DNA of 49,083 nt from Candidatus Woesearchaeota archaeon (GTDB lineage: Archaea > Nanobdellota > Nanobdellia > Woesearchaeales > GW2011-AR9), in the NCBI GenBank assembly GCA_016203205.1, contig JACQNE010000004.1, forward strand, positions 1 to 49,083, in the 5' to 3' direction. The stretch's first letter is position 1, and the number at the start of each line of letters is the position of its first letter. The notes under the pieces were generated by a model that worked only from the letters and a program-made list of their open reading frames with translations, did not search any database and had not been told where the DNA came from. This document shows positions 12,884 through 49,083 of this stretch, piece after piece. A program made the position numbers and the translations under genes.

Positions 12884-12918
12884 TTAGGTATTGCTGTTAA
12901 TCTGCCACTAATCTGCCG

Positions 12919-13233
12919 CTAATCTTTTTCTCTTCTCGGTTCATAGATGATATCATCGATTGACGCGATAGTTCCAAAAAGATAATCGCCGGCTTTGAAC
13001 GGGTCTTGGCATTCTTCGACCCTCTGTTCATTTCTGAGAAAGTTGGCAGTTACCGTCAATCGTTCCGCTTGGGTAATCGCCAAGCCATATCTTTCTTCAA
13101 AAGCATCAGCGACGTCTCCTCTCATGATGAGCGTTGCTCTTTCCGGCCCGATAGAAAGATAGGCTTCGTAATGGGTATGCTTCTCAACAATATTCTTTCC
13201 CCAAAATTCAACGGTGTATTGTGTGGTAGTCAT
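12919..13233 (-). CDS. hypothetical protein (104 aa)
   Basis: Intact ORF directly downstream of 13244..13639 on the same strand. No motif recognised. Confidence 0.45.
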   Translation of the reverse strand: MTTTQYTVEFWGKNIVEKHTHYEAYLSIGPERATLIMRGDVADAFEERYGLAITQAERLTVTANFLRNEQRVEECQDPFKAGDYLFGTIASIDDIIYEPRREKD

Positions 13234-13243
13234 CTTTCACTTC

Positions 13244-13639
13244 TTACTCGGCAATGTCTTCCAGACCAATGATCCGATATCCTGTTGGGAGTTCAAATTC
13301 AGATCTCACCACTTCTTCTCTTTGATAATCTCTCAATCCAGATACACTCGTCTCACGGCCTTTTCGTATTCTCCTGTGGATGATCAACAGCGGTTCTATT
13401 CCATCATGGAATTGCACCATTGCTGAATGATATGGAACTTCTACCATTGATCTTTGATCCCCTCGTGTTCTTCCTTGTTGTTCGTCTCCAACATTTCCAA
13501 CCGGCTGACTTACAACCTGAAATCGGTCTGCCTGAAATCGGTCTGATCGTTCGGGGAAACCAGTTTTAGGGAAAAATCTGATTTCGTGTACCCTATACCT
13601 GTCGTTCCATTCTTGGGTTATCTGAGATGTCAATTCCAT
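13244..13639 (-). CDS. hypothetical protein (131 aa)
   Basis: Intact ORF. It contains an in-frame perfect 15-nt tandem duplication (DRFQA x2). Confidence 0.45.
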   Translation of the reverse strand: MELTSQITQEWNDRYRVHEIRFFPKTGFPERSDRFQADRFQVVSQPVGNVGDEQQGRTRGDQRSMVEVPYHSAMVQFHDGIEPLLIIHRRIRKGRETSVSGLRDYQREEVVRSEFELPTGYRIIGLEDIAE

Positions 13640-16394: not shown

Positions 16395-18028
16395 GGTTCT
16401 TCCCTCGCTAGTTTGTTTTTATTGATTGATTTTTTGTCTGATTTTTGGTCTACTACTGCTTTTTCTGGTTTTTTTTGTTTCTCTTCGTTATTGAATTTTT
16501 CATTTTCTGTCTCTTCCTCTTTTGTGCGTTGTTCCACGCCGCGAAAAAGAAGGACAAGCATCCAGGTGATAAACGCAAGAATGATGACCATGCCGGTAAT
16601 CAGCAAGGCAGCAGCGATGTCATCGTTAGTATAAGGATCTTCCACGGTCTGGACAACAAGCGCTGTTTTTGCAGACGAAGTGGAAGCTTTATCTCCCACC
16701 TTATCTCCCCCTGCCGTTCCACCAGTCGCTAAACCTAATCCTTTTTCGGCCGCAGAAACTACAGTCTTGTCGAGAGTTTTTGCCGGCTCATTTTCTTCAG
16801 CTTTATTTTCTGCAGAAACTGGTTCGGGGAGAGTACATTTCTCTAATTTGAACGGGATAATCTGCCGATCACTGTCTTGATTTTTTCTGATCAGCAAAGT
16901 GACATCCAAGGGGTATGCGCCCGGCGGCAGATCCTTGGGGATGAGGAACGAAGTGGTAAAATCATAGCTATTGCCGCTTTTGCTGCTACGAGGAAGAGAA
17001 ATGTCCGGGATGTTTTCTTTTACTCCCAATTTTTGGTTGAAAATGATCAAGCCAACATTTTCCTGATCATTTGTCCCAAAATTCTTGATGATGAGGTGTA
17101 CACTCGCGCTCTGTTCGCACGCTGCTGTTGCCGGTGTTATTTCCGCCGTCGTTATCCGCACATCATCCCGAATTCTTTCTACGGAAAAAGTCAGTTCTTT
17201 CTTAACTTCGTGGAGAAGATTCTTTCCGTCTTCAGCACTCAACGTAATCTCAAAAACAAATTCGTCAGGATCAACTTCATCGTCGATCGTGAAGGTGATG
17301 ACCTTGCTGTCTTTCTTTTGGGCATCGAGGTCATCAAAAGTATAAATCTCATCAAACTCCCGGTCAACAAAAAGATCTAAATCATCTGGTTCAATCTCCA
17401 ATTCGAGATCAACTAATTCGGCATCATCCTGATCATAATCGCGGTCAAAGAGATTTTCGATGTCAAAGGTCATCTTCACTTCCGAACCAGGTTTAAGGCT
17501 ATTATCCAGCGTTAATTCTGCGTTTTTTTCGGTAGCAAATTGCTGGGTCTGGATTTTTCCGTTCTTATCTGTATATTCCACTTTTAGTTCAGAAAGGATG
17601 AGCATGGATTTGGTATTTTGCGTGAGCGTTTTGCTGGCTAATACTTGTTTCGTCAGCGCATCTTTGACGGTCAGCGTGCCGATCGGCGACTCGCCGGAAC
17701 CTTTCTTATGCGGCACTTTAACCGTAAATGAGATCGTTTTTGTTTCTCCTGCGGCAAGCGTCGCCGTCACTTCTCCAGCTTGATAATCGGTCGGAAGATT
17801 GCTCAATTCGATGCTGACCTGTGTGCTTTCAGTTCCATCATTAGCAAGATTTACCTTGCCGTTCACATCAATCTGCTTCTGTGATTCTTCCGTAAACTGG
17901 TTATAATCAACTTCGATGCTGACTTTTTCATCGGTGATCTGAACGGCTGCTGCCGCGCCGATTGTAGTGATTAGTATTAACAATAAAGTGATGGTCAGAT
18001 GCCTGAATACGGGGTTGAATGAAGCCAT
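16391..18028 (-). CDS. acidic CARDB-type surface protein with C-terminal TM anchor and Lys/Glu-rich tail (545 aa)
   Basis: Signal peptide, very acidic middle region, and a module (IIKNFGTNDQENV...PPGAYPLDVTLL) paralogous to the C-terminal module of the 896-aa protein. TM anchor is present. ATGA overlap with the downstream gene. Confidence 0.8.
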   Translation of the reverse strand: MASFNPVFRHLTITLLLILITTIGAAAAVQITDEKVSIEVDYNQFTEESQKQIDVNGKVNLANDGTESTQVSIELSNLPTDYQAGEVTATLAAGETKTISFTVKVPHKKGSGESPIGTLTVKDALTKQVLASKTLTQNTKSMLILSELKVEYTDKNGKIQTQQFATEKNAELTLDNSLKPGSEVKMTFDIENLFDRDYDQDDAELVDLELEIEPDDLDLFVDREFDEIYTFDDLDAQKKDSKVITFTIDDEVDPDEFVFEITLSAEDGKNLLHEVKKELTFSVERIRDDVRITTAEITPATAACEQSASVHLIIKNFGTNDQENVGLIIFNQKLGVKENIPDISLPRSSKSGNSYDFTTSFLIPKDLPPGAYPLDVTLLIRKNQDSDRQIIPFKLEKCTLPEPVSAENKAEENEPAKTLDKTVVSAAEKGLGLATGGTAGGDKVGDKASTSSAKTALVVQTVEDPYTNDDIAAALLITGMVIILAFITWMLVLLFRGVEQRTKEEETENEKFNNEEKQKKPEKAVVDQKSDKKSINKNKLAREEP

Positions 18029-26726: not shown

Positions 26727-27587
26727 ATGAAAACAACACCTACACAACTCTCCGTCTTTGAAGGTCAGCACATTCGTAAGATCTGGCATAATGACGAATG
26801 GTATTTTTCGGTCATTGACGTCGTTGGCGCTTTGACTGAAAGTAGTAATCCTCGAAATTATTGGAATATGCTCAAAACGCGTGAGGAAGAGCAAGGAATT
26901 GAACTGTACACAAATTGTGTACAATTAAAACTTTTAGCGGATGATGGTAAGATGAGAGAAACAGACTGTGCTAATACTGAAGCTCTTTTCCGTATAATTC
27001 AATCAATCCCTTCCAAGAAAGCAGAACCATTTAAGCTTTGGCTGGCCAAAGTAGGCTACGAACGTGTCCAAGAAATCGAAAATCCAGAATTGGCCCAACA
27101 GCGGATGAAAGAGATATACAAAGCTAAGGGCTATTCTGATAGTTGGATCGAGAAACGTGTGAGAGGAATTGCTATTCGGGATGAATTAACGGATCAATGG
27201 AAAAATCGTGGGACTCAAACCGAAAGAGAGTTTGCGATATTAACAGCTGAGATTTCTAAAGCAACATTTGGTATGACTCCCAATGAATACAAGGATTTCA
27301 AAAACTTAAAGAAAGAGAACTTACGAGACCACATGGATGATATGGAACTCGTTCTGACAATGCTTGGCGAAGCGACAACCACAAGATTAACCACAGAAAG
27401 AGATTCCCAGCAGTTTCCAGAACTAAAGAAAGATGCCAAAGACGGTGGTGATGTTGCCGGAAGCGCCAGAAAAGATATTGAACACAAGCTAGGTAAAAGT
27501 ATTGTTTCCGAAGATAATTTTCTCGAACAATCTGAGGAACAGAAAAGGATTGAACACGGCAAAGGCAAATTATCAAAATCTATATAA
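26727..27587 (+). CDS. BRO-N domain / DinD-like DNA-damage-inducible protein
   Basis: N-terminal LSVFEGQHIRKIWHNDEWYFSVIDVVGAL matches the BRO-N pattern. The central AEPFKLWLAKVGYERV...ELTDQWKNRG region resembles E. coli DinD-type proteins (from memory). Confidence 0.6.
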   Translation: MKTTPTQLSVFEGQHIRKIWHNDEWYFSVIDVVGALTESSNPRNYWNMLKTREEEQGIELYTNCVQLKLLADDGKMRETDCANTEALFRIIQSIPSKKAEPFKLWLAKVGYERVQEIENPELAQQRMKEIYKAKGYSDSWIEKRVRGIAIRDELTDQWKNRGTQTEREFAILTAEISKATFGMTPNEYKDFKNLKKENLRDHMDDMELVLTMLGEATTTRLTTERDSQQFPELKKDAKDGGDVAGSARKDIEHKLGKSIVSEDNFLEQSEEQKRIEHGKGKLSKSI

Positions 27588-33767: not shown

Positions 33768-33918
33768 GCGAGGGTGGGAGAGTGGTCAAATCCGCTAGCT
33801 TGAGGGGCTAGTCCCTTAGTGGGTACGCGTGTTCAAACGCCAGTATCCTAGGCGAAATGGGCGGGCTGAAGCCCACCACACGAAAACTAGGAGCTGCTTG
33901 AAAGTCACGTCCCTCGCA
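33768..33918 (+). tRNA. tRNA-Leu(GAG) interrupted by a 67-nt intron in the T-loop (position 59/60)
   Basis: Hand fold. Acceptor GCGAGGG/CCCTCGC plus discriminator A. 3-bp D stem GGA/TCC. Anticodon stem CTAGC/GCTAG with loop TTGAGGG. Long variable arm CCC-TTAGT-GGG. T stem GCGTG/CACGT. Removing 33838-33904 restores the canonical GTTCAAATC. Confidence 0.8.
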
Positions 33919-35944: not shown

Positions 35945-37615
35945 ATGACCTATCGTTCCCTTGCAGAAGTAATCGTCCAGCAGCTTCCCATTCCACCGTT
36001 TACATATAGGTCTACTTCTTCAGGCATTGAGCAGTTAACTCGGTTCTACCTTCTGCCGATTGTTAACGACACCGTTGATGAAATCACACGCGGGATATTC
36101 TCCGTTCATGGCCAAGTTGGCACTAGTGCGTTCCTATTTTCCTATGATGATCGCCGGTATATCTGTCCTAAACAAGGCGGGCTGACCCTGCTTTCGATAC
36201 ATAATAAATACGATTTTCTTCAACTCCCTCTCCAGAAAACCGAGTTTACTATTAATCTTGAGAAAGATGGTAAGCCTCTTCCGGGTTCTCCTTTTCCAGT
36301 CATGGGTATCGCGGGTAGCTCCGGAATCTTACCATTAACTCTGATATCCAAAGTCCAGGAACGGTGGGAGTGTATACAAGGAATATATAAAGCAGAGAAT
36401 AACTTGTATTCTTGTTATCTTTCGAATGAAGCCGAAGAATTTGCCGCTTTTGTAGAAGAATTTCTGTCCAGAATGGATCAGCCATCGGCTGAGGCAAGTT
36501 CGATCTCATTGTCTTTTCCGGCAGTTCACACCTCTCGAAAGAGTGCTGTAGATCAAGAAGTGGATTGTACCGATCCGCAATCAGTTGTCCGTTATCTTGA
36601 CGATTATGTCATCGGCCAGGAAGAAGCCAAGAAAGATGTTGCCGTCGCTGTTTCCAGCTTAATGATGCGAAAAGCGACAGGTGACGAGACGCTTCCCAAG
36701 ATGAACACCATGCTCATCGGGCCGACAGGAGTAGGTAAGACATACATGATGAAAATTTTAGCAAGGAAAGCAGGAATCCCTTTTGCTTTCACCAAGCTCG
36801 TCGGCAGAAGTGCCGAAGGTTATTATGGACAGAATGTGTCCAAAGTCTTTGATCAAATCCATCTGCAAGCAAAAGGCAAGGAAGAAGATGAAGAAGCACC
36901 GTATGGCATCGTCTTTCTCGATGAAATTGATAAAATAGTCTACGGCGGGGTTGGCGGTAAATTTAGTTTTGGCGAACAGATGCAGAACGAACTGATCGGC
37001 TGGGTTGAAGAAGATCATCTTTCCCGAGCATTGGGCGAAGGAAATTCTAGAACTGCCTATCAGTTGAATACTAAAAATCTCTTATTCGTCGTTGCCGGAG
37101 CATTTCAGGGACGGGGAAAACAGCACGATGGTCTTTCCGAGATCATCGCCAGCCGTCTTGCCGGGGGCAGACAGATCGGGTTTGGCGCAGCACACCCGCA
37201 ACGCGCGGAGAAAGACTCGTTATTGCATCAAGTACAGCCGGAAGATTTGATGTCCTGGGGCTTCTTACCGGAATTGGTCGGCCGGTTTCCCGTCGTCTCC
37301 ACGCTGGATCGACTGACAGAAGAACAGCGTGTCCGGATCTTGACGGAAGCAAAGGATTCTACGTTGGCCGGCCACGTCCGTCTTCTGACCGCGCAAGGTT
37401 ATACTATTAAAGATCCTACCCTTCTGGCACAGCTGATCGTAAGCCGCTGTCCGGCGGAGACCGGAGCAAGAGGACTGGCCTCGGTTTGCAGCCAGCTCTT
37501 TCGGGACGTGCTCTTCGACCCTTCCGCTTTTGCCGATAATAACAAAAATATTTGTATCGACCGATTAACTGGTGCATTGCCGGCAAGCGCAGCTGTGGCT
37601 GTTAGTGAAATGTGA
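35945..37615 (+). CDS. ClpX-like AAA+ unfoldase with a novel ~215-aa N-terminal domain
   Basis: LDDYVIGQEEAKK, Walker A GPTGVGKT, pore loop EGYYGQNV (compare GYVG), Walker B IVFLDEIDKI, IGF loop GGRQIGFGA, sensor/arginine region LPELVGRFPVVSTLDRLTEEQ, and TGARGL. There is no C4 zinc-binding N-domain. Confidence 0.8.
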   Translation: MTYRSLAEVIVQQLPIPPFTYRSTSSGIEQLTRFYLLPIVNDTVDEITRGIFSVHGQVGTSAFLFSYDDRRYICPKQGGLTLLSIHNKYDFLQLPLQKTEFTINLEKDGKPLPGSPFPVMGIAGSSGILPLTLISKVQERWECIQGIYKAENNLYSCYLSNEAEEFAAFVEEFLSRMDQPSAEASSISLSFPAVHTSRKSAVDQEVDCTDPQSVVRYLDDYVIGQEEAKKDVAVAVSSLMMRKATGDETLPKMNTMLIGPTGVGKTYMMKILARKAGIPFAFTKLVGRSAEGYYGQNVSKVFDQIHLQAKGKEEDEEAPYGIVFLDEIDKIVYGGVGGKFSFGEQMQNELIGWVEEDHLSRALGEGNSRTAYQLNTKNLLFVVAGAFQGRGKQHDGLSEIIASRLAGGRQIGFGAAHPQRAEKDSLLHQVQPEDLMSWGFLPELVGRFPVVSTLDRLTEEQRVRILTEAKDSTLAGHVRLLTAQGYTIKDPTLLAQLIVSRCPAETGARGLASVCSQLFRDVLFDPSAFADNNKNICIDRLTGALPASAAVAVSEM

Positions 37616-37766
37616 TCCGGGCGGCGGTTCTTGACAGATTTCTTGCCGATATTTAGTATCAATAGTCTTTTGTTAAATGCAATCATTTCACTTCCAAGCA
37701 CTTCATTAAACCGGCAGCCCTCCTTGCTTTTTTTACTGGTATTCCCTCTCTCCATTCCAGCATAAT

Positions 37767-37776
37767 CTTTATATAC
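37767..37776 (+). promoter_or_regulatory. TATA box (CTTTATATAC) for the 37799-48499 operon
   Basis: About 27 nt upstream of the ATG at 37799. A T-run terminator-like tract (CTTTTTTTAC) lies just upstream. Confidence 0.55.
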
Positions 37777-37798
37777 TCTCCAGCCATAGCAAAAGACA

Positions 37799-39799
37799 AT
37801 GGAACAAAAGAGGAAGAGGTGTGCTATTTGTCGTTCTATCTCTCGGCTTTCCCCACAAAAACGCGGGCAAGTAACCTTGTTTATCATCATCGGCATCCTG
37901 CTTGTTCTTGCGCTGATCGTGGTTGTGTTTGTGCGCAAGGAATTGCTGACCACCACGCCTGATGAACTGATCACCACCGGCAAAGGGCCGGTAGCCGATT
38001 TTATTGCCATGTGCATCAAGCAATTGGGAGAAGAGGCTCTGCTTAAAGCAGGAGAACAGGGCGGGTATGTGACACTGCCGGCAGAAATTGCCCAGAATGG
38101 CTACGTTCACCTGAAGACCTCGCCTTTTACCGCCGTTCCCTATTGGGCTTACGGCACGACGCGGGCCGTGCCCTCGCTTCCGGCAATCAAATCTCAGATC
38201 GATGCCCACATCCGGCAGCATCTGCGCTCCTGTCTTTTTGATCAGGGCGCGTTCTCCGCAACGAATAACATCATTGAGAAAAGTGAGATCACGGCGGACA
38301 CGAATCTTGCCGAAAATAAAGTAATCTTTAATGTCCGCTGGGATCTGGAAGTTCAGACTAAAGCGGGTGAGAAAATTATCGATCTCCTGGACCACGCCGC
38401 AGAATCGCCGGTGAAGTTCAAGCGCCTGTACGATGCCGCCGTGCGGGTTATCGATGTTGAGCTGCGCGAGCTTAAACTGGAAGACATCACTCAGGACTTG
38501 ATCGCCTTAGAGCATCCCAACGTGCCTGTCGTCGGCTTTGAATTATCCTGCTCACCCAAACAATGGGACGTGGAAACGGTACAACAGACCGTGCGAGATC
38601 TGCTGCGGGTGAATATCGGCCAGCTGCGTGTGCGGGGGACGGATGTCGTTGAATTCCCTGACGAGCTGCCTTATTACCAGAATCATTATGTCTGGGATCT
38701 CGGCGCTGATTTTGCACCCAAGAATGTGGTCATCGATTTCCATTACGATAATAGTTATCCCTTCACGTTTGACGTCCGGCCGCGCAGTGGAAGTACATTA
38801 AAAAGCGCAGCGCTGGCCGCCGGTTCCAATCCGCTGCTTTCTGCATTCTGCGCCCAAAGCTGGAAATTCACCTACGATGTAAGCTATCCGGTTTTGGTTA
38901 CGCTGCGTGACGCGACGACGGGCTACACATTTAAAACTGCCCTGACTGTGCATCTGCAGAAGAACATCCCCAATCGGGAAGAGATCATCCCCGCAGTCGC
39001 ACCACCTTTTATCACTGAAACGTATTCCGACCAGCAATTTTGCGCCACGCGGAATGTGCCGCTGCTGATCACGACCAGCGAGGCAGTTGATAACGGAAAA
39101 GATGTTTCATTCAGCGAGCCGTTAGCTGGCGTGAATATTACCTATAACTGTCTTCAGTATCAGTGTTCTCTCGGCCAGACTGAATATGACTATGCCGGCA
39201 TGGGCGACGTGGCGGCATATCAATTTACCGTTCCTTATTGCGCCAATGCGGTTATCCGCGCCGATAAAGACGGTTATGCAGACGGCTGGACAAATCTGGT
39301 CGCCAAACCAGGCGCGCGTGCTGACATTCAATTGATCCCGACTCTTGCTTTTCCGGCGGCGAATATTTCGCTGGTAAAACATTATCTCAGCGGTGATGCC
39401 CAGTTTAGCGCCGGCATCGCGCTGGCGAAAGACGAGACAACGATCATCAAGCTCAGTTCAGTCCAAAAAGACGTGCGGACAAATCTTCCTGTAGTAGAAA
39501 GCACGGTCGTTCTTTCCTCTGATCTTTCCGAAGATGTCCTGCAAAACCAGCCGCTGAAACTGCTGGCCAAAGCCGATTTCATGTATAATGTTGATATTGC
39601 CGTCTTGAACGGCGAACGCTTCAGCGCCGGCTACAAAGCTAACTGGACTGCATCCTGGCAGGAATTGGAACACGCCCAGCGCCTGACGTTTCATGTTGTC
39701 GGACAGCAAAGCGCATCTGATGCTGACACATTTGGGTTGTATGCCGAATTGGCGGAAAGAAGCGCGGCATTGCCCTTGCCTGAGCTGCATGAAAAGTAA
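37799..39799 (+). CDS. large extracellular protein with class III (pilin-type) signal-like N-terminus (666 aa)
   Basis: A 22-aa basic leader ends in KRGQ, followed by VTLFIIIGILLVLALIVVVFV. The ectodomain has no recognised catalytic motif. Confidence 0.75.
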   Translation: MEQKRKRCAICRSISRLSPQKRGQVTLFIIIGILLVLALIVVVFVRKELLTTTPDELITTGKGPVADFIAMCIKQLGEEALLKAGEQGGYVTLPAEIAQNGYVHLKTSPFTAVPYWAYGTTRAVPSLPAIKSQIDAHIRQHLRSCLFDQGAFSATNNIIEKSEITADTNLAENKVIFNVRWDLEVQTKAGEKIIDLLDHAAESPVKFKRLYDAAVRVIDVELRELKLEDITQDLIALEHPNVPVVGFELSCSPKQWDVETVQQTVRDLLRVNIGQLRVRGTDVVEFPDELPYYQNHYVWDLGADFAPKNVVIDFHYDNSYPFTFDVRPRSGSTLKSAALAAGSNPLLSAFCAQSWKFTYDVSYPVLVTLRDATTGYTFKTALTVHLQKNIPNREEIIPAVAPPFITETYSDQQFCATRNVPLLITTSEAVDNGKDVSFSEPLAGVNITYNCLQYQCSLGQTEYDYAGMGDVAAYQFTVPYCANAVIRADKDGYADGWTNLVAKPGARADIQLIPTLAFPAANISLVKHYLSGDAQFSAGIALAKDETTIIKLSSVQKDVRTNLPVVESTVVLSSDLSEDVLQNQPLKLLAKADFMYNVDIAVLNGERFSAGYKANWTASWQELEHAQRLTFHVVGQQSASDADTFGLYAELAERSAALPLPELHEK

Positions 39800-39813
39800 G
39801 TAAAAAAAAGCAA

Positions 39814-42800
39814 GTGAAAAGAAAAACCAGTGAAAAGAGCAAGTACAAAAAAATAAGTGAGAAAGAGATGGTGAGAAACAATACGATAACTCCTGTGAAC
39901 AGAAAAAAGAAGCAGAACTTTCTCCGCGCCCAAGCGCTATTTGTAATCATGCTCTTTGTCCTTCTTCCGGCGGCTGCCGCTCTGGAAATTTCCGCTGTTT
40001 CGGCGCAGCCCGTGACCTCGACGGGAGCGACGATCAGCTGGACGACTGACGAGCCGGCAGATTCGTTTGTCCATTATGGTACTGATGCGGCCTCATTGAA
40101 GACGGCCGGCGATGCCAAAGCGACGACAAGCCATTCTTTGCAGATCAGCGGCTTGGCGGCAGAAACAAAATATCTTTATTCCGTGGAAAGCCAGGGGGTT
40201 GTTGATGATAATGGCGGGTCTTTGTATTCATTTGAAACGCCGGCGCCGGACACTGCCGCGCCGGCATTAAAAGTTGAATTTCCCGCAAAAGTTGCCGGGA
40301 CGCGCGGGACATTTTCGGGAGAAACAGAAATTGGCGTACAGGTGACGCTGATCCTTAACGGCAAAAAAAGTGGAACTGTGACGGCAGAACCAAGTACGGT
40401 CGATGCCAAGAAAGGATTTTTTACATTCAGTGAAATCATTCTGCAGGAAAATGCCGCAAATACGTTGCTTGTGGAAGCCGTTGATGCCGCCGGCAACAAA
40501 GCGGCAGCTTCCGGAAGCGTCTTTGCCGACGCGAAAAAACCGACGGTAGACGTAAAAAGCATCCCCGCTTTTGTTACGGAAAATTCTTACAAATTAATGC
40601 TGACTGTTTCCGAAGCGGTAAAATATGAAATTTTTGTCAATAACAAATCCGTTTCCAAAGGCGAAGGAGCAAAGATCGATGTGTCTGTGCCGCTGCAGGA
40701 AGGGCAGAATAAGATTGTGCTAAAATTGACGGATGATGCCGGCTGGGTGACTGAAGAAGAAATCACCATCGAAGCCAGCGCCAAGCCGCCGATGATCAAA
40801 GCAGAGATCGAGCGCGGAAAGGAATTCTATGAAGGCCGGGCCACTTCGCCGATCAGCGGGACGACCAGTCCGGGCGCCAAAGTCTATCTCTACGTCTACA
40901 AACCGCAGTTGAATGAATATACACCATCATTTGACCGGCCGCGTCAGACCGTGACGGCCAATGAGAAAGGAGAATTCCGCTTTGCTGATATTTCGTTTAC
41001 TTCTTCCATCGCTGATATCTCACTGGAAAAAGTGGTGCCCAAAGAAATCCCTGCGGACTTGGTGAAGATCAAGATCTTTCCCCTTGGCGAAGGCGTGCAG
41101 CAGCAGACGTATTATGTCTATCTCATCGCTGAGGATAAAGCGGGGAGAAGCGCTTCCTGGCAGCAGCAAGTCTTGATCCAAAGCTGTTTCTCGGGAAATC
41201 TGGACTTTTCGATCGAATCTGTCCCGGAATTTCAGGCGCCGCTGCGTCTTGTTCCCCAGCTCGTCGATCAGGGCAGACAGGACGTGCAGGCAGTATTCAA
41301 GCTGAATTATAACGGCTTGGGCGTGCCCGTCAGAACAGCGGATGGAAAAATCATCGAGCAAGGCGTGCGCGTGACCAATGTCCAGATCGGAGAGGCCTGT
41401 ACGACGGGGATGGCGAAAGATGAGAAATTCAGCCTCGGCTGCAGTCTGCTGCCGAGCCGGCCGACGCGTTCGCTGCCGAATCCCGATCAATCAGCAGTCT
41501 ATGCCAGCTGGACGCTGCATCAGGGAGAAGAACTGAGCGCTGCCAAAGAGAGTTTCTGGAACGAATTTAAAAATCGGCAGGTCGTTTTCCCATTAAAGAT
41601 CCAGGTAAGTTATCAGGAAGTAGAAAGCCGTGATGCGGCAGGAAATGCGGTGTATGGAAAAGCAAAGATCCAGAACAGCTGTACGGACTTAAGTTATTTT
41701 GTGGACATTCCGCTGGATAGCAAGGACATGATCCCCGATTTTCTCGCCGACGAAGGCGTTGATGCGTTGAATTGGACAATCACCCAGATCAATGTTGTTA
41801 CGCCGTACATTGAGAAAGCATACTTAATCACGGGAATTACGGGCATGGCCGCGTTCCTGTTGCGGACAGTCGCGCGCTGGGTGCGCATCTTCGCCACAAA
41901 GCTGGAACAGTATTATTCTATCCTGAACAAGAATGAAACTGGCTGTCGTAATCCAGAACAATACTATCTTGATGATACTTTGAAAGATTGGAAAGAAGCC
42001 GGTGTGGCCAACGGCCCGGATCCTTTGCTGGGTGCGCTCAAGAGCGAACAGGGAAGCGAGGCATGGAATGCTGTTTCTCTCGACAAGCGCTGTCCTTCCA
42101 CGGCGAGCGCCTGGAAATTTGAGGCGATCATGGATCAGGCCTACAAATGGAGTTGGGATCGCGCGTTCTGCCGCGCCGTACCCGCACGCTGGACGGAGGA
42201 TAAGAAGCAAAGTGAAATTGCCTTGCGCGTGGCGGACCAGCAGCAATGCGCTGTGACGGGAAGCGGTGTGCCTTTGGAACTGATTGAAAATTGCAAAGAA
42301 TTTATCTCCAAGAACAAGATCCTTCTCGACACCGGGATCGATCAAGACACGCTGAGCCTCTGCTGGCGGACAAAAGATTCTGACCTGTATGTACGGACGC
42401 CGCAGGTTGATCTAACAACAGCAGAACAGGGAGACCAGGCCAAAGGATTTTATTACCTAACCCATATCGGCAATACCTACACGGTTGCGTCTTCGGCATT
42501 GATCACCTACGGTCCGCGGCTGAAAGTGTACAAACCGCAGGGCGCGCAGACTTTTTTCGTAGCGAAAGATCAGACCTGCACGGCTACGTGCAACAACCCG
42601 CAGAAGCCGGGCTATCAGGCAGACCGCACGTTAGGGAATGCAAATGGCTGTTACGATCAGAAAGGGGGGCTGTTTTATGACGGGTTCGGCGATCCCCTTC
42701 TTCAAGGCCGTTATGCTGCCGGCTACACTAAAGATTGTTTCATCAAAGATGATAATCAGAAAAACATCCTGCGTGATGCTGCCGGCAATCCGCAGCTGCA

Positions 42801-45699
42801 GCAATGCGTCTGCATGCCGGATACGACGCCGAAGAAAATTGCCGACGGGGGAGGAATGCGTGTCGCTCAGGAAAAGAACAAAGATACGGGTGTGGTGGAA
42901 TCCTGGTCATATCAGCAAGACCGGATGTATCAGGAAACGGGCGGCGGGCAAGGAACGTTTTACCCAGCGGAACGTTATTCTGGCGGACGCGATCTCTCCG
43001 GCGCGTTCGGCGCAAATTATCTTCTGGATTATGCGCGTGCAGAAGAAAAAGAGCCAAAAATTAATCCAAATACTCAGATCATCGGCACATTCCAGACCGT
43101 CTGTCTTTCAGGGATCTTGAAGAACTTGAAATTGTTGCAAAGCATGTTAGCGGGCGTGCAGGCCTGTTTAGTGGAAGCAAAATATACCGGTTTGCATGAT
43201 GCGGGGATGTGCAAAACACTGTTTACGCAGCAGGTCTGCGGACTGCTGTATCAAGGAATTGCTTTCCTGGCGAGCAGCAACAGCTGTATGCCGCTGGATT
43301 TCAATTCCGTCGGCAAGGAAGGGCCGATCGCCGATGCCGGAACAATCATCTCCGGCGGTTTCAGCGCAATGACTCAAGCTTTAGATACATCGTTTGAAGA
43401 TGCGCGTAATGAATACGGCAATGCCGCGCTCAATCAATACTTTAAAGGCGGGACGCAGGGTTTTGCCCAATCAATCTGCCTGGCTGCCTTTGGCTATGAC
43501 TTCCCACTGTTCAGCGAAGATTTCCTGCTTGATGCAGCGTATGCTTTTCCGACGAAAACCTTTCCAGTCATCGCGCCGGCGAGCCGGGAATTAAGCAGCT
43601 ATGACCCGACGAAGCAGATGGCCATCTTTAATTATAATATTGGCGGGGCAATCTTTCCCGGTTGTAAAGTCAAAACAGCGACGGTAAAATTGAAATGCAT
43701 CGGTCCGGGCGATCGGGGAAATCCCAACGTGGATGAGTCCTGCGGCGGACAAGGCTGCGACTGCCTGAATGTTCCCGGAACGGGAGCCGCGTTTGAAGCG
43801 CAGAAAGAGCAGCAGCTGGGAACTTGGTTTAATCTGCCGCCGGCGCAGATGTTCTCCATTCCGTTGGAATCGCCGCAGCACGTTACCGCACCATACCGTT
43901 ATGATCATGTCGTCGTGGAATTATTCTTAGATCCGAGCGAGAAGGATAATTATGATAAATGCGTGGAAAGCGAATTCCTGCAGGGGAATAAAGCGGTCTT
44001 TTATTATCCGTTGAGTGATGTTTCTCCGCCGAGCGCGTTGGCGTGTACTGTTGATCTGACGACGGGGCGTTACCAGTGTCCTGAATTGTATTCGCTCTTT
44101 GGCTATGGCGGCGCGTTTTTAGAAGATCCATACGTCTCTTGTTGGAACAAGAAAACTGAGACCTGGATGTCCTGCGATACACCCAACTTGTTTGTCATCG
44201 GCGATGAGATCAAAGTGCGGGCGCACGTGAATACGGATGGAAAAGGACAGTGCTTGAAACGAACGGTGAATCCATTAGTTCCGGGTATATTGGCCGAAGC
44301 GCCGCCGCGCCAGATCGTGCAGAATGTGCAGGGTGCGCAATACGTGAGTGATACTTTGGGGATTGTGCAGGCCGGCATGTTCGGCGGCAGTACACCGATC
44401 ATCACTTTAGCGAAAGAAGAAAGCGGCCTGAATTGCGGCCCGATCACACAGGATTTGACACCAACGGCGTTGACATCCGGTGAAAAAGTAACCTTTGGCT
44501 TTGATGCCGGCAGTTTGCCTAATACTGTTCGGTTGATTGTGCCGGCGACAGTAAATATTAACACGCCCGGTTACAGCCGCAGCGGGAATTATTTAGCGAA
44601 GGGCAGCGTGGTCGATCTGGCTGTTCAGGAGATAAATCTGGTGCAATTCAGCGCGCTTGGCTTTACGTTCCGCAATGTCTTGGGCGGGGTTAATCCGACG
44701 GATCAAAAGAGACAGTGCGTCTATCAGATCATCGAACAGAATGTGTATTCGCAGGGCGTGAACAGCCGCGACTTTACCGTGACGTATCAATTATTGGAGA
44801 AAGATGAAGCCGGCGGCTGCTATCTGGCCAATCAGCCGGTAAAAACATCATTGGGCAAGGCGACGCACGGACAGAAAATCACCATCCAGAAAGAAGAAAC
44901 TGCCGTCAGCGGCTTGCAGCAGAGCTTTGCTACGGGCAATTATCAACAGACTTTGGACTATGCGGTCATCGTCTTGAATCAGCGGCGCGGCGATATGGAA
45001 AATGCGCTGGCCTATTATTATTATATCGCCAGTTTTGTGATGCTGGGCAAGAACAATCCTGCGCAGTTTGAAGGGCAGATCAAAGAGGCGCTGAGTGGAT
45101 TCTTCAATCGGAAATGGGCAGAGCAAGATGCACAGCCGTATCCTGCCGATGTTGCGGCAATTACGGAATATCAGAAGATCAGGAAATATCTTTGTGAAGT
45201 TGACGGGAAGTATGGTTCGGTGAATGCGGGGATGTGTGGGGGAGGTGCAGTATCACCTTCGTCTAGTTCTAGCGCTACCTGCGAAGGAAAAGGTTTCACG
45301 ATCGACATTGGTGATGGTTTCTTGCACAGATGTCTCAGTACGACGCGGGCAGAAGGCTGTCGTCCATCTACCGGCTTGCCCACGAATGAGTATGATATTA
45401 GTAAAGTGCCGACTCCAGCACACAAACAAAAATTAGAAGAGGCTTGTAAAGAAGGTGCGACGGGAGGTACGTTCACAGCGACGGTTACTTTGCCGGATTC
45501 CTCAAATAAATGTTCTTCTGGGGATTATCCAATCAATGATCTTCCTGGTGATAACGCGCCTTATGCGTTTCGATGCGATGGTCAAACTAAAGCGTATTCC
45601 TGCACGAAATCAACGGGCGATACATCTCCCGGCTCAGGCCCTCAGCCATTTACGATCCCCGCATCTTCCGCTGATCTGTTAGCGAGGTGTAAGTCTTGA
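39814..45699 (+). CDS. giant cysteine-rich surface protein (1961 aa) with N-terminal FN3/Ig-like domains
   Basis: Uninterrupted 5.9 kb ORF. Leader ..KKKQNFLRAQ-ALFVIMLFVLLP. FN3-like SAQPVTSTGATISWTTDEPADSFVHYG...YLYSV. Ig-like repeats are followed by an internal hydrophobic segment and a very Cys-rich 1250-aa C-terminal part. The start is the GTG at 39814 or the ATG at 39868. Confidence 0.85.
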   Translation: MKRKTSEKSKYKKISEKEMVRNNTITPVNRKKKQNFLRAQALFVIMLFVLLPAAAALEISAVSAQPVTSTGATISWTTDEPADSFVHYGTDAASLKTAGDAKATTSHSLQISGLAAETKYLYSVESQGVVDDNGGSLYSFETPAPDTAAPALKVEFPAKVAGTRGTFSGETEIGVQVTLILNGKKSGTVTAEPSTVDAKKGFFTFSEIILQENAANTLLVEAVDAAGNKAAASGSVFADAKKPTVDVKSIPAFVTENSYKLMLTVSEAVKYEIFVNNKSVSKGEGAKIDVSVPLQEGQNKIVLKLTDDAGWVTEEEITIEASAKPPMIKAEIERGKEFYEGRATSPISGTTSPGAKVYLYVYKPQLNEYTPSFDRPRQTVTANEKGEFRFADISFTSSIADISLEKVVPKEIPADLVKIKIFPLGEGVQQQTYYVYLIAEDKAGRSASWQQQVLIQSCFSGNLDFSIESVPEFQAPLRLVPQLVDQGRQDVQAVFKLNYNGLGVPVRTADGKIIEQGVRVTNVQIGEACTTGMAKDEKFSLGCSLLPSRPTRSLPNPDQSAVYASWTLHQGEELSAAKESFWNEFKNRQVVFPLKIQVSYQEVESRDAAGNAVYGKAKIQNSCTDLSYFVDIPLDSKDMIPDFLADEGVDALNWTITQINVVTPYIEKAYLITGITGMAAFLLRTVARWVRIFATKLEQYYSILNKNETGCRNPEQYYLDDTLKDWKEAGVANGPDPLLGALKSEQGSEAWNAVSLDKRCPSTASAWKFEAIMDQAYKWSWDRAFCRAVPARWTEDKKQSEIALRVADQQQCAVTGSGVPLELIENCKEFISKNKILLDTGIDQDTLSLCWRTKDSDLYVRTPQVDLTTAEQGDQAKGFYYLTHIGNTYTVASSALITYGPRLKVYKPQGAQTFFVAKDQTCTATCNNPQKPGYQADRTLGNANGCYDQKGGLFYDGFGDPLLQGRYAAGYTKDCFIKDDNQKNILRDAAGNPQLQQCVCMPDTTPKKIADGGGMRVAQEKNKDTGVVESWSYQQDRMYQETGGGQGTFYPAERYSGGRDLSGAFGANYLLDYARAEEKEPKINPNTQIIGTFQTVCLSGILKNLKLLQSMLAGVQACLVEAKYTGLHDAGMCKTLFTQQVCGLLYQGIAFLASSNSCMPLDFNSVGKEGPIADAGTIISGGFSAMTQALDTSFEDARNEYGNAALNQYFKGGTQGFAQSICLAAFGYDFPLFSEDFLLDAAYAFPTKTFPVIAPASRELSSYDPTKQMAIFNYNIGGAIFPGCKVKTATVKLKCIGPGDRGNPNVDESCGGQGCDCLNVPGTGAAFEAQKEQQLGTWFNLPPAQMFSIPLESPQHVTAPYRYDHVVVELFLDPSEKDNYDKCVESEFLQGNKAVFYYPLSDVSPPSALACTVDLTTGRYQCPELYSLFGYGGAFLEDPYVSCWNKKTETWMSCDTPNLFVIGDEIKVRAHVNTDGKGQCLKRTVNPLVPGILAEAPPRQIVQNVQGAQYVSDTLGIVQAGMFGGSTPIITLAKEESGLNCGPITQDLTPTALTSGEKVTFGFDAGSLPNTVRLIVPATVNINTPGYSRSGNYLAKGSVVDLAVQEINLVQFSALGFTFRNVLGGVNPTDQKRQCVYQIIEQNVYSQGVNSRDFTVTYQLLEKDEAGGCYLANQPVKTSLGKATHGQKITIQKEETAVSGLQQSFATGNYQQTLDYAVIVLNQRRGDMENALAYYYYIASFVMLGKNNPAQFEGQIKEALSGFFNRKWAEQDAQPYPADVAAITEYQKIRKYLCEVDGKYGSVNAGMCGGGAVSPSSSSSATCEGKGFTIDIGDGFLHRCLSTTRAEGCRPSTGLPTNEYDISKVPTPAHKQKLEEACKEGATGGTFTATVTLPDSSNKCSSGDYPINDLPGDNAPYAFRCDGQTKAYSCTKSTGDTSPGSGPQPFTIPASSADLLARCKS

Positions 45700-46265
45700 T
45701 GAACACAAAAGGAACAGGCGTCATTGAACTGATCATCTTTTTGATCATCGTCGTCGTAATCAGCGCGACCGTATTATTATTGATTAAATTTAATGTAGTG
45801 GAAGTAAAAGAGGACGGTGCGCAGGAGCCGGTCTTAAATGTCGAGTTTATCCCATATGCCCGCGAAGGAGTACTTGTCGTGAAAGAGTTCTCGTTCTGCC
45901 GTTCGGTTGATGAAGCGTATGATTGTCTTGGTGCGGGAAATCAGTTTGTTTTTGGCCAGCCCGTCTATTATCGTTTTGGCGTGGAGAGCAGCACGTATCA
46001 AGGGCAGATTAAAGTGGTGAAAAATTATCGCATCAAAGGGCCGTCAGGAGAAGTTTTATTAGACGTGGGAACAGATCAGCAGTCTCAATTTGATTCTGTA
46101 AGCAATAATGTTCAAGAAGTTGTTTTGTTCAAAGATTATTTTGTCGTTCCGGCGGGATTTCCGGCCGGAGAATATACGTTTGAATTGGTGGTAGAGAATC
46201 CATTGTTGACGAAACAGGCAACATTGATACAGAGGTTTGTTATTGGTAGTGGGGTGGAAGGATGA
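45699..46265 (+). CDS. type IV pilin-like protein (188 aa)
   Basis: The N-terminus MNTKG-TGVIELIIFLIIVVVISATVLLLI has a short basic leader, a Gly at the putative cleavage site, Glu at +5 and a hydrophobic helix. The ATG overlaps the upstream TGA by 1 nt (the ORF track lists the TTG at 45696). Confidence 0.7.
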   Translation: MNTKGTGVIELIIFLIIVVVISATVLLLIKFNVVEVKEDGAQEPVLNVEFIPYAREGVLVVKEFSFCRSVDEAYDCLGAGNQFVFGQPVYYRFGVESSTYQGQIKVVKNYRIKGPSGEVLLDVGTDQQSQFDSVSNNVQEVVLFKDYFVVPAGFPAGEYTFELVVENPLLTKQATLIQRFVIGSGVEG

Positions 46266-48499
46266 GGAAAGAACGATTGTTTTTGCTGTTTGTGCTGGTA
46301 GTGTTGGGTTCTTCGATGGTGTTGGGGTCTAAACATTCGTATGGGCTTATTGATGAAATCCCCTCCTCTTGGGTAATAGAGAAAAAATTGAATGGCCCGG
46401 TAAACAGCGGAGAATTTCCGATTAAATGTTCTGGTGGAATTTGTGGTGCCCTTCAATGGGAATCGGGGTCTAATATCCATACCCTCTATTCCACGACTTT
46501 AAATAAGAAGAAAATATATATCGGTGTTGGGGGGGGCGGTAGTGGAGCAAAGTATCTTACGGTTACTTTTGATGATAATTATGAACAAATTGGGCTGGTT
46601 GTTCAAAGCCCTTCTGATTTAGCTATAACCTCTGATGTAAAAACAATTAAACTCAACTTTTTTTTTATTATAGGGGGCACTACAGAGAGGGAGGGAAATG
46701 CTAAAAAATATGGCTCTTGGACGTTTGAAGACCTCTATGTAGCGGGAGGTAAGTATAATCTATATCCTCGCATCCAAGTGATATATAATGATCATGCAAT
46801 AGTCTGCCAAAAATTAGGACATATTGTATTCCTGGGTGACGGTTATTGGCATAAATGCCTGAGTGCAACAGAAGCACAAGGCTGTGATCCCAAAACTGGA
46901 TTACCGATAAATAAATATGTAATCTCAAAGGTTAAAAATTCTGAACATAAAGAATCTCTGCAGCAAATATGTCCTAGATCTTATGCCGCCACTGTTCCCG
47001 GCAGCAGCAGTGTCTGCAAATACAAATCAATCGCCATCATCGGCGCTTCCAATACGGTTAAGCAGAATGGGAACAGTTTTGGTGAATTGATTGAAAAAAG
47101 TTGTCCGGAGTCTAAAGTCTATATCTTGGCTGCAAGTGGCGCTACGCCGACAAAGCAGAAAGAGTTGCAACTTCCTGTTGCGTTATCTTTAAACCCAGAT
47201 CTCTTGATCATCGATCCTTCGGCAAACGGTATTACTGATATAGCTTATTATAACTCGGTCAAAGCCATGACTGTAGCAGCAAAAGCGTCTGACTCTAACA
47301 TGCAAGTCGTGGTCATGACCATCTCCCCCCATAAAAATTATGATTATGGCGGCGGCGCTCAATGGAATCAGAAAATTCAGAATGAGATTGAGATTTTTAA
47401 TGATGATCTTGTCCTACATAAACTATCGACAGAAAACATTAATCAAGCCGTGAATACCTATCCCACACTGGGCAGCCCTAGTGATAAAGATGTCTGCGGC
47501 TTTTGCAAATCAGATCTGGGGCATTTAAACGCAGAAGGACATAAACGTGTCGCCGCGCAAATCTTAAAAGAAGTGTTTGGACTAATTGTTGATATATCGT
47601 CTTGGGCTGGGGGGGGCAGTGGCGGCATCCAAGTTGGTACGGCATCTGCGGCACAGCAGATCCAGCAGAACTGCCAGATCGAGCAGCGCTGTAAAGATAT
47701 TGATTCGGCGTGGGTGACGTTCAGCGGTGTGTTAGGCTTGCGTTCCGGAGAAGTCTGGGTGCCGCCGCTGAAAGCATGGAGAACATTTGCGGATGTGTAT
47801 AATCCGAAAGCGGTGGCTGCTCCGGCCGCAGTCAGTTCTCCGGGGAGTGGAAAAAGCGGCGCGGGTATTGTTGAATGTGCAACTGCAGATGCGAGCATGA
47901 CAAATGAACAAAAAGCTTTCTTGGATACAATTGCCTATGCTGAAGGAACGACCAATTGCGGGATAAAGCATGGTGTTTCCAGCTATAATATCCTCGTTGG
48001 ATGTACTGTGTTCACGGATCTTTCGAACCACCCCAATAGTCTTGTTTCGACGGGGGATGTAAAATCAAAAGCTGCCGGAAGATACCAAAATCTCCACGTT
48101 TCTCAGTTTGGTCCAGGTAAGAAATATCCCGATTTCCAACCCGCCACACAAGACAGAGCTGCATTGGATTTAGCAACAAGTGAAGGCAGCATATCTCAGA
48201 GTTCTTTTGCCTTAAGCCCAAACTGGGAAGTTATCTGGAACAGTGCAGCAAAAACGTGGGCGGCAATTAGTTATACCCAGACTATCTCCCCGGATAGTAA
48301 CTGGCATAAGAATAATAAAAAAGTTAATGGTGGTGTTGTTGATTCTTCCTGTGGCAATGGAAACAGTTATTATTGTCAAGGCAGCGGCGTTAACCATGCG
48401 ACATTGACCAAAGTATATAATCTCTGTTTGAAAAACTACCAAAGTGGCGGCGCGAAAGGCACACGGTTCAAATTATCCAGCGGTGAAAAAATATCATAA
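46262..48499 (+). CDS. secreted multidomain hydrolase: N-domain + SGNH esterase + lambda-R-like (GH104) lytic transglycosylase (745 aa)
   Basis: Signal peptide MRKERLFLLFVLVVLGSSMVLGS. SGNH blocks IAIIGASNT, ..GATP.., DPSANGI and DLGHLNAEGH (nt about 47030-47580). A Gly-rich linker follows. The C-terminal QKAFLDTIAYAEGT..YNILVG..FTDLSNHP..AAGRYQ..DFQPATQDRAAL (nt 47897-48290) closely parallels phage lambda endolysin R. Confidence 0.8.
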   Translation: MRKERLFLLFVLVVLGSSMVLGSKHSYGLIDEIPSSWVIEKKLNGPVNSGEFPIKCSGGICGALQWESGSNIHTLYSTTLNKKKIYIGVGGGGSGAKYLTVTFDDNYEQIGLVVQSPSDLAITSDVKTIKLNFFFIIGGTTEREGNAKKYGSWTFEDLYVAGGKYNLYPRIQVIYNDHAIVCQKLGHIVFLGDGYWHKCLSATEAQGCDPKTGLPINKYVISKVKNSEHKESLQQICPRSYAATVPGSSSVCKYKSIAIIGASNTVKQNGNSFGELIEKSCPESKVYILAASGATPTKQKELQLPVALSLNPDLLIIDPSANGITDIAYYNSVKAMTVAAKASDSNMQVVVMTISPHKNYDYGGGAQWNQKIQNEIEIFNDDLVLHKLSTENINQAVNTYPTLGSPSDKDVCGFCKSDLGHLNAEGHKRVAAQILKEVFGLIVDISSWAGGGSGGIQVGTASAAQQIQQNCQIEQRCKDIDSAWVTFSGVLGLRSGEVWVPPLKAWRTFADVYNPKAVAAPAAVSSPGSGKSGAGIVECATADASMTNEQKAFLDTIAYAEGTTNCGIKHGVSSYNILVGCTVFTDLSNHPNSLVSTGDVKSKAAGRYQNLHVSQFGPGKKYPDFQPATQDRAALDLATSEGSISQSSFALSPNWEVIWNSAAKTWAAISYTQTISPDSNWHKNNKKVNGGVVDSSCGNGNSYYCQGSGVNHATLTKVYNLCLKNYQSGGAKGTRFKLSSGEKIS

Positions 48500-48568
48500 A
48501 TACTTGAGAGAACTTTGAATGATTCACTTTACGTCAAAAAAATAAATTATAATTAGGATACATTTTGG

Positions 48569-49009
48569 TCATTTCCTAAATAAAATTAATTTGATAATAT
48601 CATCCAAAGATACACCTATTTCTATGCCACTTTTACAAAGTTCTTTTATTTCTTCATCAGAAACTTCTTTTCCGTCATAAATGTTTATGTGTCCAAGTTG
48701 TCTATTACGTTTGTTGTTAAAATTTGATAATTTGTTTTTAAGTGGTTCATCTATAATCCCTGTAATGAATAAATCTCTAAGAATTTGAGCAAAAGATTTA
48801 TCTTCAATAATTTTCCATTTTTCTTTATGATTGCCGAAAGGCTTACCATTTTCATCTTTATCAAATTTATAACGGAGAATTATGCGTAACTGGTGGTGTA
48901 TACCTGCATGAATTGTCGCAAAAGCTTTCCAAATATTTGTTTCTATAAGATTATTAAAGTAATTTAAGGACAATTTATTTCCAGTATAAAGTAATTCTTT
49001 TTTGCTCAT
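48569..49009 (-). CDS. hypothetical protein with possible HEPN-like Rx5H motif (146 aa)
   Basis: Intact ORF in a strongly AT-rich segment. It is predicted all-helical, and NKRNRQLGH fits Rx4-6H. Confidence 0.45.
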   Translation of the reverse strand: MSKKELLYTGNKLSLNYFNNLIETNIWKAFATIHAGIHHQLRIILRYKFDKDENGKPFGNHKEKWKIIEDKSFAQILRDLFITGIIDEPLKNKLSNFNNKRNRQLGHINIYDGKEVSDEEIKELCKSGIEIGVSLDDIIKLILFRK

Positions 49010-49083
49010 CTTATCTTAGCTGTCAAGATAGTTATATTTTTATATATTGTGTATAATGTATGTTTTAATGAGCGAAACAAAGG

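Follow-up and report, generated by a model that had tools for sequence, protein, structure and literature searches.

The window analysed here is a 49,083-nt stretch of a Candidatus Woesearchaeota genome (assembly GCA_016203205.1, contig JACQNE010000004.1, positions 1–49,083, forward strand), and a gene at 46262–48499 on its plus strand encodes a 745-aa protein in which an SGNH/GDSL esterase domain is fused to a lysozyme domain of the lambda endolysin R type. Judged from its sequence and a structural model, this gene probably encodes a secreted, disulfide-rich, multi-domain murein-degrading enzyme that acts as the terminal effector of a four-gene cluster of the Woesearchaeota, a group of DPANN archaea. 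Secreted murein hydrolases are already known from archaea, including the DPANN; what is added here is a hypervariable effector slot in a cluster that is conserved widely in Woesearchaeota. A wall-cutting gene of a tiny groundwater archaeon in such a lineage-wide slot suggests attack or feeding on bacteria. An initial annotation, prepared from the sequence alone, was right about the domains and the kind of organism, too specific about an Ape-type mechanism, and missed the larger locus.

The esterase–lysozyme fusion

The hydrolase gene and its parts, with residue numbers of the protein in brackets, are as follows.

46262..48499 (+): hydrolase gene, a putative modular murein hydrolase (745 aa) occupying the effector slot of the locus; secretion predicted
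46262..46330 (+): predicted Sec-type signal peptide or N-terminal anchor, read from the sequence (residues 1–23, MRKERLFLLFVLVVLGSSMVLGS)
46331..46831 (+): N-terminal domain of unknown fold (residues 24–190), with partial likeness to the homologue P0004 only; AlphaFold2 (AF2) predicted local distance difference test (pLDDT) <50
46832..46972 (+): GDG[YF]xH[KR]C module (GDGY module), ~50 aa with conserved Cys (residues 191–237); AF2 pLDDT 80–93
47003..47590 (+): SGNH/GDSL esterase domain (residues 248–443), by profile, fold and residue conservation
47048–47050, 47225–47227, 47513–47515 and 47522–47524 (+): codons of the SGNH residues Ser263, Asn322, Asp418 and His421, respectively
47648..47812 (+): LINK, a conserved 55-aa two-Cys module (residues 463–517, QIEQRCKDIDSAW...VWVP)
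47846..48496 (+): lambda-R-type (GH104-like) lysozyme/lytic transglycosylase domain (residues 529–745), with the Glu561 codon at 47942–47944

The open reading frame (ORF) lies exactly where it had first been placed, its ATG overlapping, as ATGA, with the stop of the gene before it, and the fusion proposed for it is borne out, both domains being real. All of the motifs that had been quoted were located in the translation (QKAFLDTIAYAEGT, residues 550–563; SYNILVGCTVFTDLSNHP, 574–591; AAGRYQ, 604–609; DFQPATQDRAAL, 624–635; GASNT, 261–265; DLGH, 418–421). The same 745-aa protein was found in an independent assembly (run SRR12113383). With 18 Cys, including invariant Cys in each module of a six-homologue alignment, the sequence fits an extracellular, disulfide-bonded protein, and its basic-plus-hydrophobic N-terminus recurs in the homologues and in the 40 effector-slot proteins examined. 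The N-terminal 255 residues were modelled poorly by AF2 (pLDDT 52, with the GDGY module alone confident) and gave no Foldseek match below E = 2.

Searched with phmmer against all PDB sequences, the protein matched lambda endolysin R (1AM7/3D3D; E = 5e-13, residues 546–644), and PHROG 90 ‘endolysin’ was matched over residues 531–671 (E = 3.5e-16). An AF2 model of residues 250–745 had a pLDDT of ~90 in both catalytic domains, and Foldseek placed it with 3D3D (probability 1.00, template modelling score normalised to the target 0.70) and with 1AM7 (35% identity). Over the core, identity to lambda R is ~35% across 111 aligned residues. The likeness to lambda R that had been proposed for residues ~546–680 is thus far above chance, though the domain runs further than supposed, to about residue 740, and holds a ~30-aa Cys-containing insertion. 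The catalytic Glu is retained, as had been expected: Glu561 aligns with Glu19 of lambda, is invariant in six of six close homologues and has a Glu counterpart in 151 of 153 collected lambda-type domains (the lambda reference sequence of this last comparison agrees with the PDB alignment from phmmer). The nearest non-archaeal relatives of the domain are small phage-type lysozymes, which makes an ultimately bacterial or phage origin plausible on sequence similarity. The donor lineage that the initial annotation hoped to read from a phylogeny was not identified, as a neighbour-joining tree of the 153 domains did not join the archaeal SGNH/LINK-bearing sequences in one clade and its resolution was too poor at this divergence for a donor claim.

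The esterase domain was recognised with a profile of six orthologous SGNH domains, which matched the SGNH structure 4PPY (E = 8e-6), while orthologous domains in other species scored 31.5–67.6 bits, above the Pfam cutoffs, and Foldseek of the AF2 model returned dozens of SGNH esterases at a probability of 1.00. Carbohydrate acetyl-esterases were the top of the nearest solved structures, which also included TesA-type lipases. In the six-sequence alignment, Ser263 of block I (G261-A-S263-N-T), Asn322 of block III (P-S-A-N322-G, aligned to the block III Asn of 4PPY) and His421 of block V (D418-L-G-H421) are invariant, the acidic position of block V is Asp or Glu in five of six homologues, and no invariant Gly could be assigned to block II. 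No homologue came from a word-index search for which the SGNH domain by itself was the query. The SGNH domain inferred earlier from its GASNT and DLGH blocks therefore stands on profile, fold and orthologue scores, and proper alignment kept the catalytic residues of both domains. It is likely, from sequence and model together, to be an active serine esterase that aids wall degradation.

The four-gene locus and its effector slot

Directly upstream of the hydrolase gene lie three further members of the cluster and an optional accessory gene.

35945..37615 (+): ClpX-like AAA+ ATPase, optional accessory; also in L005 and L009, absent in L004 and L007
37799..39799 (+): p666, conserved 666-aa protein, first gene of the cluster, with the class-III (prepilin-like) motif K-R-G-Q-V-T-L-F-I-I-I-G
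39814..45699 (+): giant, putative surface protein (1961 aa, Cys-rich) that has a signal sequence and, N-terminally, fn3/Ig-like domains
45243..45699 (+): variable C-terminal tail of the giant protein, with a GDGF module at 45295–45459
45699..46265 (+): p188, conserved 188-aa protein with an N-terminal transmembrane or pilin-like segment (MNTKGTGVIELII...)

The order p666, giant, p188, hydrolase was kept in every locus examined (L001–L009 and L014–L018), with p188 always directly upstream of the effector. Across placed loci p666 has 658–668 aa, the giant 1,732–2,062 aa and p188 180–188 aa, and these core proteins diverge down to ~35–45% identity, so the arrangement is old. In relatives the gene after the hydrolase is usually bPH_2, which lies on the opposite strand, and the locus occupies a fixed chromosomal position by bPH_2, Fpg and DnaK in many Woesearchaeota. 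The N-terminus of p666 conserves K/R-G-Q-V/I-T-x-F-I-I-I-G, the pattern of archaeal class-III (prepilin) signals, and p188 has a conserved hydrophobic N-terminus with G-x-x-E-L-I; from these patterns both may be unrecognised pilin-like proteins. The ClpX-like ATPase, between PAC2 and p666, has an N-terminal ~200 aa without assignment.

A scan of one genome per species returned at least 392 relatives of p666, and among the matches listed, the records named to phylum were Woesearchaeota, Nanoarchaeota or Nanoarchaeia, many others being generically labelled. For a scan of neighbourhoods, 80 of the p666 loci were retrieved; p188 lay downstream of p666 in 49, and 42 had a gene in the following slot. 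Of these slot genes, 40 encode a protein with a signal-like N-terminus and two are enolase genes, so the slot is empty in those two loci. The domain content of the 42 slot genes was as follows (SGNH1, LINK and lambda-type denote names in the analysis, SGNH1 by our own hidden Markov model (HMM)).

Lipase_GDSL_2 and Lipase_GDSL (GDSL families): 12 + 8
SGNH1 HMM: 20
LINK: 18
Lambda-type: 12
SLT: 10
Amidase_2: 6
M15_4: 3
Phage_lysozyme2: 3
Glucosaminidase: 2
Hydrolase_2: 2
Polysaccharide deacetylase (Polysacc_deac_1): 2
GH25: 1
M74: 1

Further domains of the slot proteins were FGE-sulfatase-like, DUF2272, EEP, DUF218 and Metallophos. The FGE-sulfatase-like domain (PF03781) stands beside murein hydrolase domains in 12 of the 42 and DUF2272 in six (carriers of either: the slot proteins of L025, L030, L038 and L048, and P0046, P0060, P0061, P0065 and P0067), and both may be binding modules.

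The family to which the 745-aa protein belongs shows the same variety. An exhaustive HMMER search through 1.84 billion representatives gave 53 proteins at E ≤ 1e-10, 18 of them at E ≤ 1e-30, and with our own domain HMMs ~20 cluster representatives had the order SGNH, LINK, lambda-type. Other SGNH-LINK proteins end in VanY, Amidase_2 (with or without M74), M23, Phage_lysozyme2, Hydrolase_2 or 3D, and the partners of SGNH-LINK overall comprise Amidase_2, VanY/M15, M23, M74, SLT, GH25 and Phage_lysozyme2. As many relatives keep SGNH-LINK and swap the C-terminal hydrolase, SGNH-LINK is the constant chassis and the lambda-type domain one warhead of many. In some homologues an EEP domain (of nuclease or phospholipase-C type) is also present, as is a second SGNH domain, which is DUF459-like. 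In L004, a 206-aa ORF straight after the hydrolase (12737–13357) is a remnant of the second (DUF459-like) SGNH domain that is fused in P0005; a frameshift seems to have detached it, which would be a domain loss in progress.

The exchange of modules is visible between close relatives. The closest, Ca. Woesearchaeota RIFCSPLOWO2_01_FULL_44_20 (loci L009, L011 and L019), shares 91% protein identity with the window in p666, 89% in the giant and 87% in p188, and its L009 slot protein combines an alpha/beta-hydrolase-like domain, LINK and an M15 peptidase. At the DNA level the window and L009 are 84–86% identical over 36758–45242 and 45699–46293; downstream of 46293, L009 matches only at a 208-nt LINK island (47616–47823, 87.5% identity) between unrelated flanks. 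The GC content of the island is 56.7%, that of the two flanks 41.5% and 44.4%. Also replaced between the window and L009 is the end of the giant protein, ~150 residues that hold the GDGF module. These alignments indicate that recurrent recombination would have shuffled effector composition between species, with LINK as the junction. In a comparison of the window with L001, L004, L005 and L007, some loci had the GDG[YF]xH[KR]C module at the C-terminal end of the giant and others had it on the hydrolase, and the window had it on both proteins; the module's confident AF2 model (pLDDT 80–93) had no structural match by Foldseek, and it may be a docking element. The initial view that a gene from bacteria or phage had been built into an archaeal secreted protein agrees with the archaeal setting, the signal-like N-terminus and the phage-type relatives; the gene is not a one-off acquisition, though, and instead is a cassette in a recombining slot found across the lineage.

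Proposed function and competing explanations

Given its single catalytic Glu, the lambda-type domain would cleave glycan strands most likely as a lytic transglycosylase producing 1,6-anhydro-N-acetylmuramic acid (1,6-anhydroMurNAc). The SGNH domain would act as a Ser-His(-Asp) esterase, most likely removing O-acyl (acetyl) groups from wall glycan or an associated envelope polymer, and so could give the attached murein hydrolase, of whatever kind, better access. D-Ala-D-Ala peptidases and MurNAc-L-Ala amidases act on murein and not on pseudomurein, which is without MurNAc and D-amino acids. Among the warheads of the slot are D-Ala-D-Ala carboxypeptidases, MurNAc-L-Ala amidases and M23/M74 endopeptidases, and because their substrates are in bacterial murein the whole system appears to be aimed at bacterial walls. 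The cluster as a whole may form a cell-surface apparatus that contacts or breaches bacterial cells or harvests their walls, and the fixed linkage to giant surface and pilin-like proteins, together with the fast turnover of warheads, favours contact-dependent attack, in which living bacteria would be the target.

A more specific model is put forward tentatively, as a possibility appreciably short of even: that the cluster is a lineage-wide Woesearchaeal apparatus for breaching bacteria, with prepilin-like p666, the giant as adhesin, p188 and a docked effector, in which the warhead is swapped at LINK and the GDGY module provides the docking that would tie the effector physically to its neighbours. 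If this were true, bacteria rather than archaea would be the organisms with which most Woesearchaeota have physical, antagonistic contact, and a host's wall chemistry could be predicted from the warhead type.

Several results weigh against the interpretation as a murein-degrading effector, or against parts of it. Pfam and NCBIfam gave no lysozyme match at E ≤ 1 for the 745-aa protein, and its own Pfam Lipase_GDSL_2 score (20.7–24.9 bits against a cutoff of 32.9) was sub-threshold; the significant lambda-R and SGNH matches anticipated by the initial annotation were thus obtained by other routes and not from Pfam. Phage-type relatives of 150–260 aa likewise have no precomputed lysozyme Pfam domain, so the lysozyme miss may be a coverage gap. 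The block-V Asp is absent in P0004, which has Gly at that position. An esterase of Ape type, as first suggested, was not recovered: Ape1 was absent from the PDB profile matches at E ≤ 10 and from the Foldseek top 50, PatB gave a weak profile match over block V only, the CE3 esterase 2VPT stood at Foldseek rank 46, and the SGNH domain, compact at 196 residues, forms an uninterrupted SGNH fold in the AF2 model, without the CBM35-like insert of Ape1. Amidase- or peptidase-only warheads accompany SGNH1 in P0051 (= L036), L065, P0047 and P0072, so de-O-acetylation in the service of a transglycosylase cannot be a general rule. Neither p666 nor p188 had a Pfam, PHROG or PDB match, the pilin-like label being taken from their N-terminal motifs; PHROGs also gave nothing for the ORF downstream of the hydrolase, nor did phmmer against PDB for the giant protein. 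We know of no bacterial partner of these archaea.

Where the explanations divide most is the substrate of the esterase. Ape is an SGNH enzyme classed with the CE3 acetyl-xylan esterases, and an O-acetyl group at MurNAc C6 blocks lytic transglycosylases and lysozymes (PMC6174289), so an esterase that removes it potentiates them. The chemistry by which the initial annotation accounted for the fusion is accordingly sound, and at least 15 of the 20 SGNH1-bearing slot proteins also have a glycan-cleaving domain, which is compatible with it; the same chassis is, however, joined to amidases and peptidases, so the fusion is not specifically explained by a transglycosylase's need for a de-O-acetylase. 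SGNH was not significantly enriched with the lambda-type warhead (8/12 vs 12/28, Fisher p = 0.30; p = 0.15 when the second SGNH type was counted). That the domain de-O-acetylates peptidoglycan specifically is possible but rather doubtful. A somewhat better prospect, though itself a little under an even chance, is that the murein-hydrolase role is the same and the SGNH domain is a lipase/lysophospholipase or an esterase on another envelope polymer (lipoprotein, outer-membrane lipid, teichoic acid, capsule or exopolysaccharide acetyl groups) that opens a path for the warhead. Amidases and peptidases on the chassis, which do not need a free MurNAc C6-OH, are in keeping with such a role, as are Foldseek neighbours that include TesA/lysophospholipase L1 and generic GDSL lipases besides acetyl-xylan esterases, the phage tail and tail-spike proteins with SGNH domains that form the best viral structural matches, and the EEP and second SGNH domains of homologues, which suggest a multi-substrate toolkit. 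The top structural matches to carbohydrate O-acetyl esterases, the CE3 affiliation of Ape and the glycan-cleaving partners count in the other direction.

The remaining alternatives concern the role of the gene as a whole. It is unlikely, though by no means negligible, that the enzyme digests wall fragments or necromass for amino sugars and peptides with no cell-contact apparatus involved. The available text of two reports presents DPANN archaea as auxotrophic scavengers (PMC8204110, PMC9723730), and the protein is predicted to be secreted and has no recognised cell-wall-binding domain in Pfam; yet in every locus the gene keeps a tight linkage, its start overlapping the preceding stop, to genes for giant surface and pilin-like proteins, the GDGY module is common to the giant and the effector, and rapid swapping of warheads among close relatives is a pattern more characteristic of loci for conflict or host range than of catabolic enzymes. 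The initial annotation had allowed for a housekeeping enzyme, should the host possess a murein-like wall of its own. Remodelling of a murein-like or pseudomurein wall of the archaeon itself or of an archaeal host is highly improbable and was rejected: the scanned ORFs of the window, 49 kb of the genome, include no Mur, PBP, GT28 or GT51-type gene, nothing in the window supports it, and the carboxypeptidases, amidases and M23/M74 peptidases of the same slot are specific to bacterial murein chemistry. It is scarcely credible that the gene is a phage or prophage endolysin, or lies on a bacterial contig (from the candidate phyla radiation, CPR) mistaken for an archaeal one, even with a phage-type lysozyme domain, one locus labelled Ca. 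Nomurabacteria and a BRO-N protein elsewhere in the window. The contig encodes TFB, GatD, TYW3, a Trm61-like methyltransferase, PAC2 and a proteasome subunit, confirming the archaeal host that had been supposed, named homologues are Ca. Woesearchaeota or Nanoarchaeota, and no phage structural genes are nearby; with the fixed locus and the independent assembly, this origin was also rejected. The gene is thus best read as the murein-degrading effector of an archaeal locus.

A GH25 enzyme of Aciduliprofundum boonei is reportedly an archaeal peptidoglycan hydrolase that kills bacteria, a finding said to go back to Metcalf in 2014. Archaeal peptidoglycan hydrolases that kill bacteria have since been demonstrated, and Nanoarchaeota are rich in them (Strock et al. 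2025, PMC12352652). Like those enzymes, the 745-aa protein is archaeal, modular and plausibly of horizontal origin, with domain shuffling; unlike them, its accessory domain is an esterase rather than a wall-binding domain. The survey criterion was one or more Pfam murein-cleaving catalytic domains plus one or more Pfam wall-binding domains (PMC12352652), whereas Pfam sees only a sub-threshold GDSL domain here, so the protein falls outside that definition and would have been missed. In the available text of Castelle 2021 (PMC8204110) and Vigneron 2022 (PMC9723730), large extracellular proteins of Woesearchaeota and Pacearchaeota with murein transglycosylase (SLT/GH23) domains are read as pointing to bacterial hosts or predation. 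They agree with the present protein in lineage and inferred purpose, and SLT occupies the same slot in 10 of 42 loci; they differ in being annotated as GH23/SLT, and the same text describes no lambda-type domain, SGNH-LINK chassis, four-gene locus or cassette swapping. Across the partial literature coverage of titles and abstracts, none appears to describe the four-gene locus, the chassis or the swapping, which is not proof of novelty. A 2012 CAZy census had GH104 in 0 of 101 archaea (PMC3541169).

With lambda endolysin R (GH104; 1AM7, 3D3D) the protein shares the fold, a single catalytic Glu in A-x-x-E-G-T, AAGRYQ and FxPxxQD. R itself is a cytoplasmic phage protein of 158 aa released by a holin, whereas here the domain is the C-terminal module of an archaeal protein with a predicted signal peptide, extra Cys and the ~30-aa insertion, and has no Pfam/NCBIfam match. 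SGNH serine esterase chemistry is also shared with Ape1, which works beside lytic transglycosylases in Neisseria and Campylobacter (PMC6174289, PMC7083599). There, unlike here, esterase and transglycosylases are separate periplasmic housekeeping proteins of the owner of the wall; in the archaeal fusion the activities are joined in an organism without murein, the esterase also accompanies amidases and peptidases, and no specific relationship to Ape1 was detected. Among phage virion and tail proteins, many of which have SGNH domains, two BFVD models (A0A6J5PIJ1 and A0A6J5NSN6) align over both the SGNH and the lysozyme domain, but these are viral structural proteins at 12–19% identity and the present gene is chromosomal, archaeal and in a fixed locus. 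Polymorphic toxin loci (Rhs and contact-dependent inhibition, CDI) resemble the cluster in their conserved neighbourhood, hypervariable terminal enzyme and short island of identity at the junction (here LINK). The likeness is an analogy only, as no immunity gene was seen in the archaeal loci and the N-terminal parts vary too; none is expected, because the producer lacks the target.

The Woesearchaeota are among the most widespread DPANN groups, and the case that their partners are bacterial has so far been made from scattered SLT-domain annotations. A locus in hundreds of species, whose terminal gene nearly always encodes a predicted secreted murein hydrolase (40 of 42 loci), comes from at least 10 catalytic families and is mosaic between close relatives, offers a testable handle on archaeon–bacterium interaction by way of warhead type, expression and localisation. 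It is also a source of unusual lysins, including a lambda-type domain missed by Pfam-based surveys, and the fused esterase may defeat lysozyme resistance based on O-acetylation.

Other features of the window and of related records

Downstream of the hydrolase, positions 48500–49083 have a GC content of only 26.5% and hold, where relatives have bPH_2, a 146-aa ORF (48569–49009, minus strand) without a family match. This low-GC segment, at which the window ends, may be an insertion or replacement.

Some records carry labels that do not fit the Woesearchaeal locus. In L012 (MFTJ01000013.1), labelled Ca. Nomurabacteria (a CPR bacterium), a p188 homologue (44% identity) comes first, SGNH2+LINK and LINK+M15_4+Metallophos proteins come next and bPH_2 last, an order that matches the Woesearchaeal synteny; the contig is probably archaeal and mis-binned, and a transfer is less likely. 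‘Uncultured Methanosarcinales archaeon’ is the title given to L026, L028, L030 and many further loci, and it looks like a generic or wrong taxonomic label.

Elsewhere in the window, large genes without Pfam assignment lie at 3783–10298 (1376, 483 and 308 aa, plus strand) and at 13704–18028 (896 and 545 aa, minus strand, with a weak NPCBM_assoc match in the 545-aa protein), and may encode further surface proteins. The only tRNA is a tRNA-Leu(GAG) at 33769–33853, and Rfam found no other RNA family over the window. A BRO-N domain protein, of a domain typical of viruses and mobile elements, is encoded beside gatD (26727–27587), and a nucleotidyltransferase (Polbeta/MNT) and a HepT-like (HEPN) RNase form a pair at 2893–3713 with the layout of a type VII toxin–antitoxin module.

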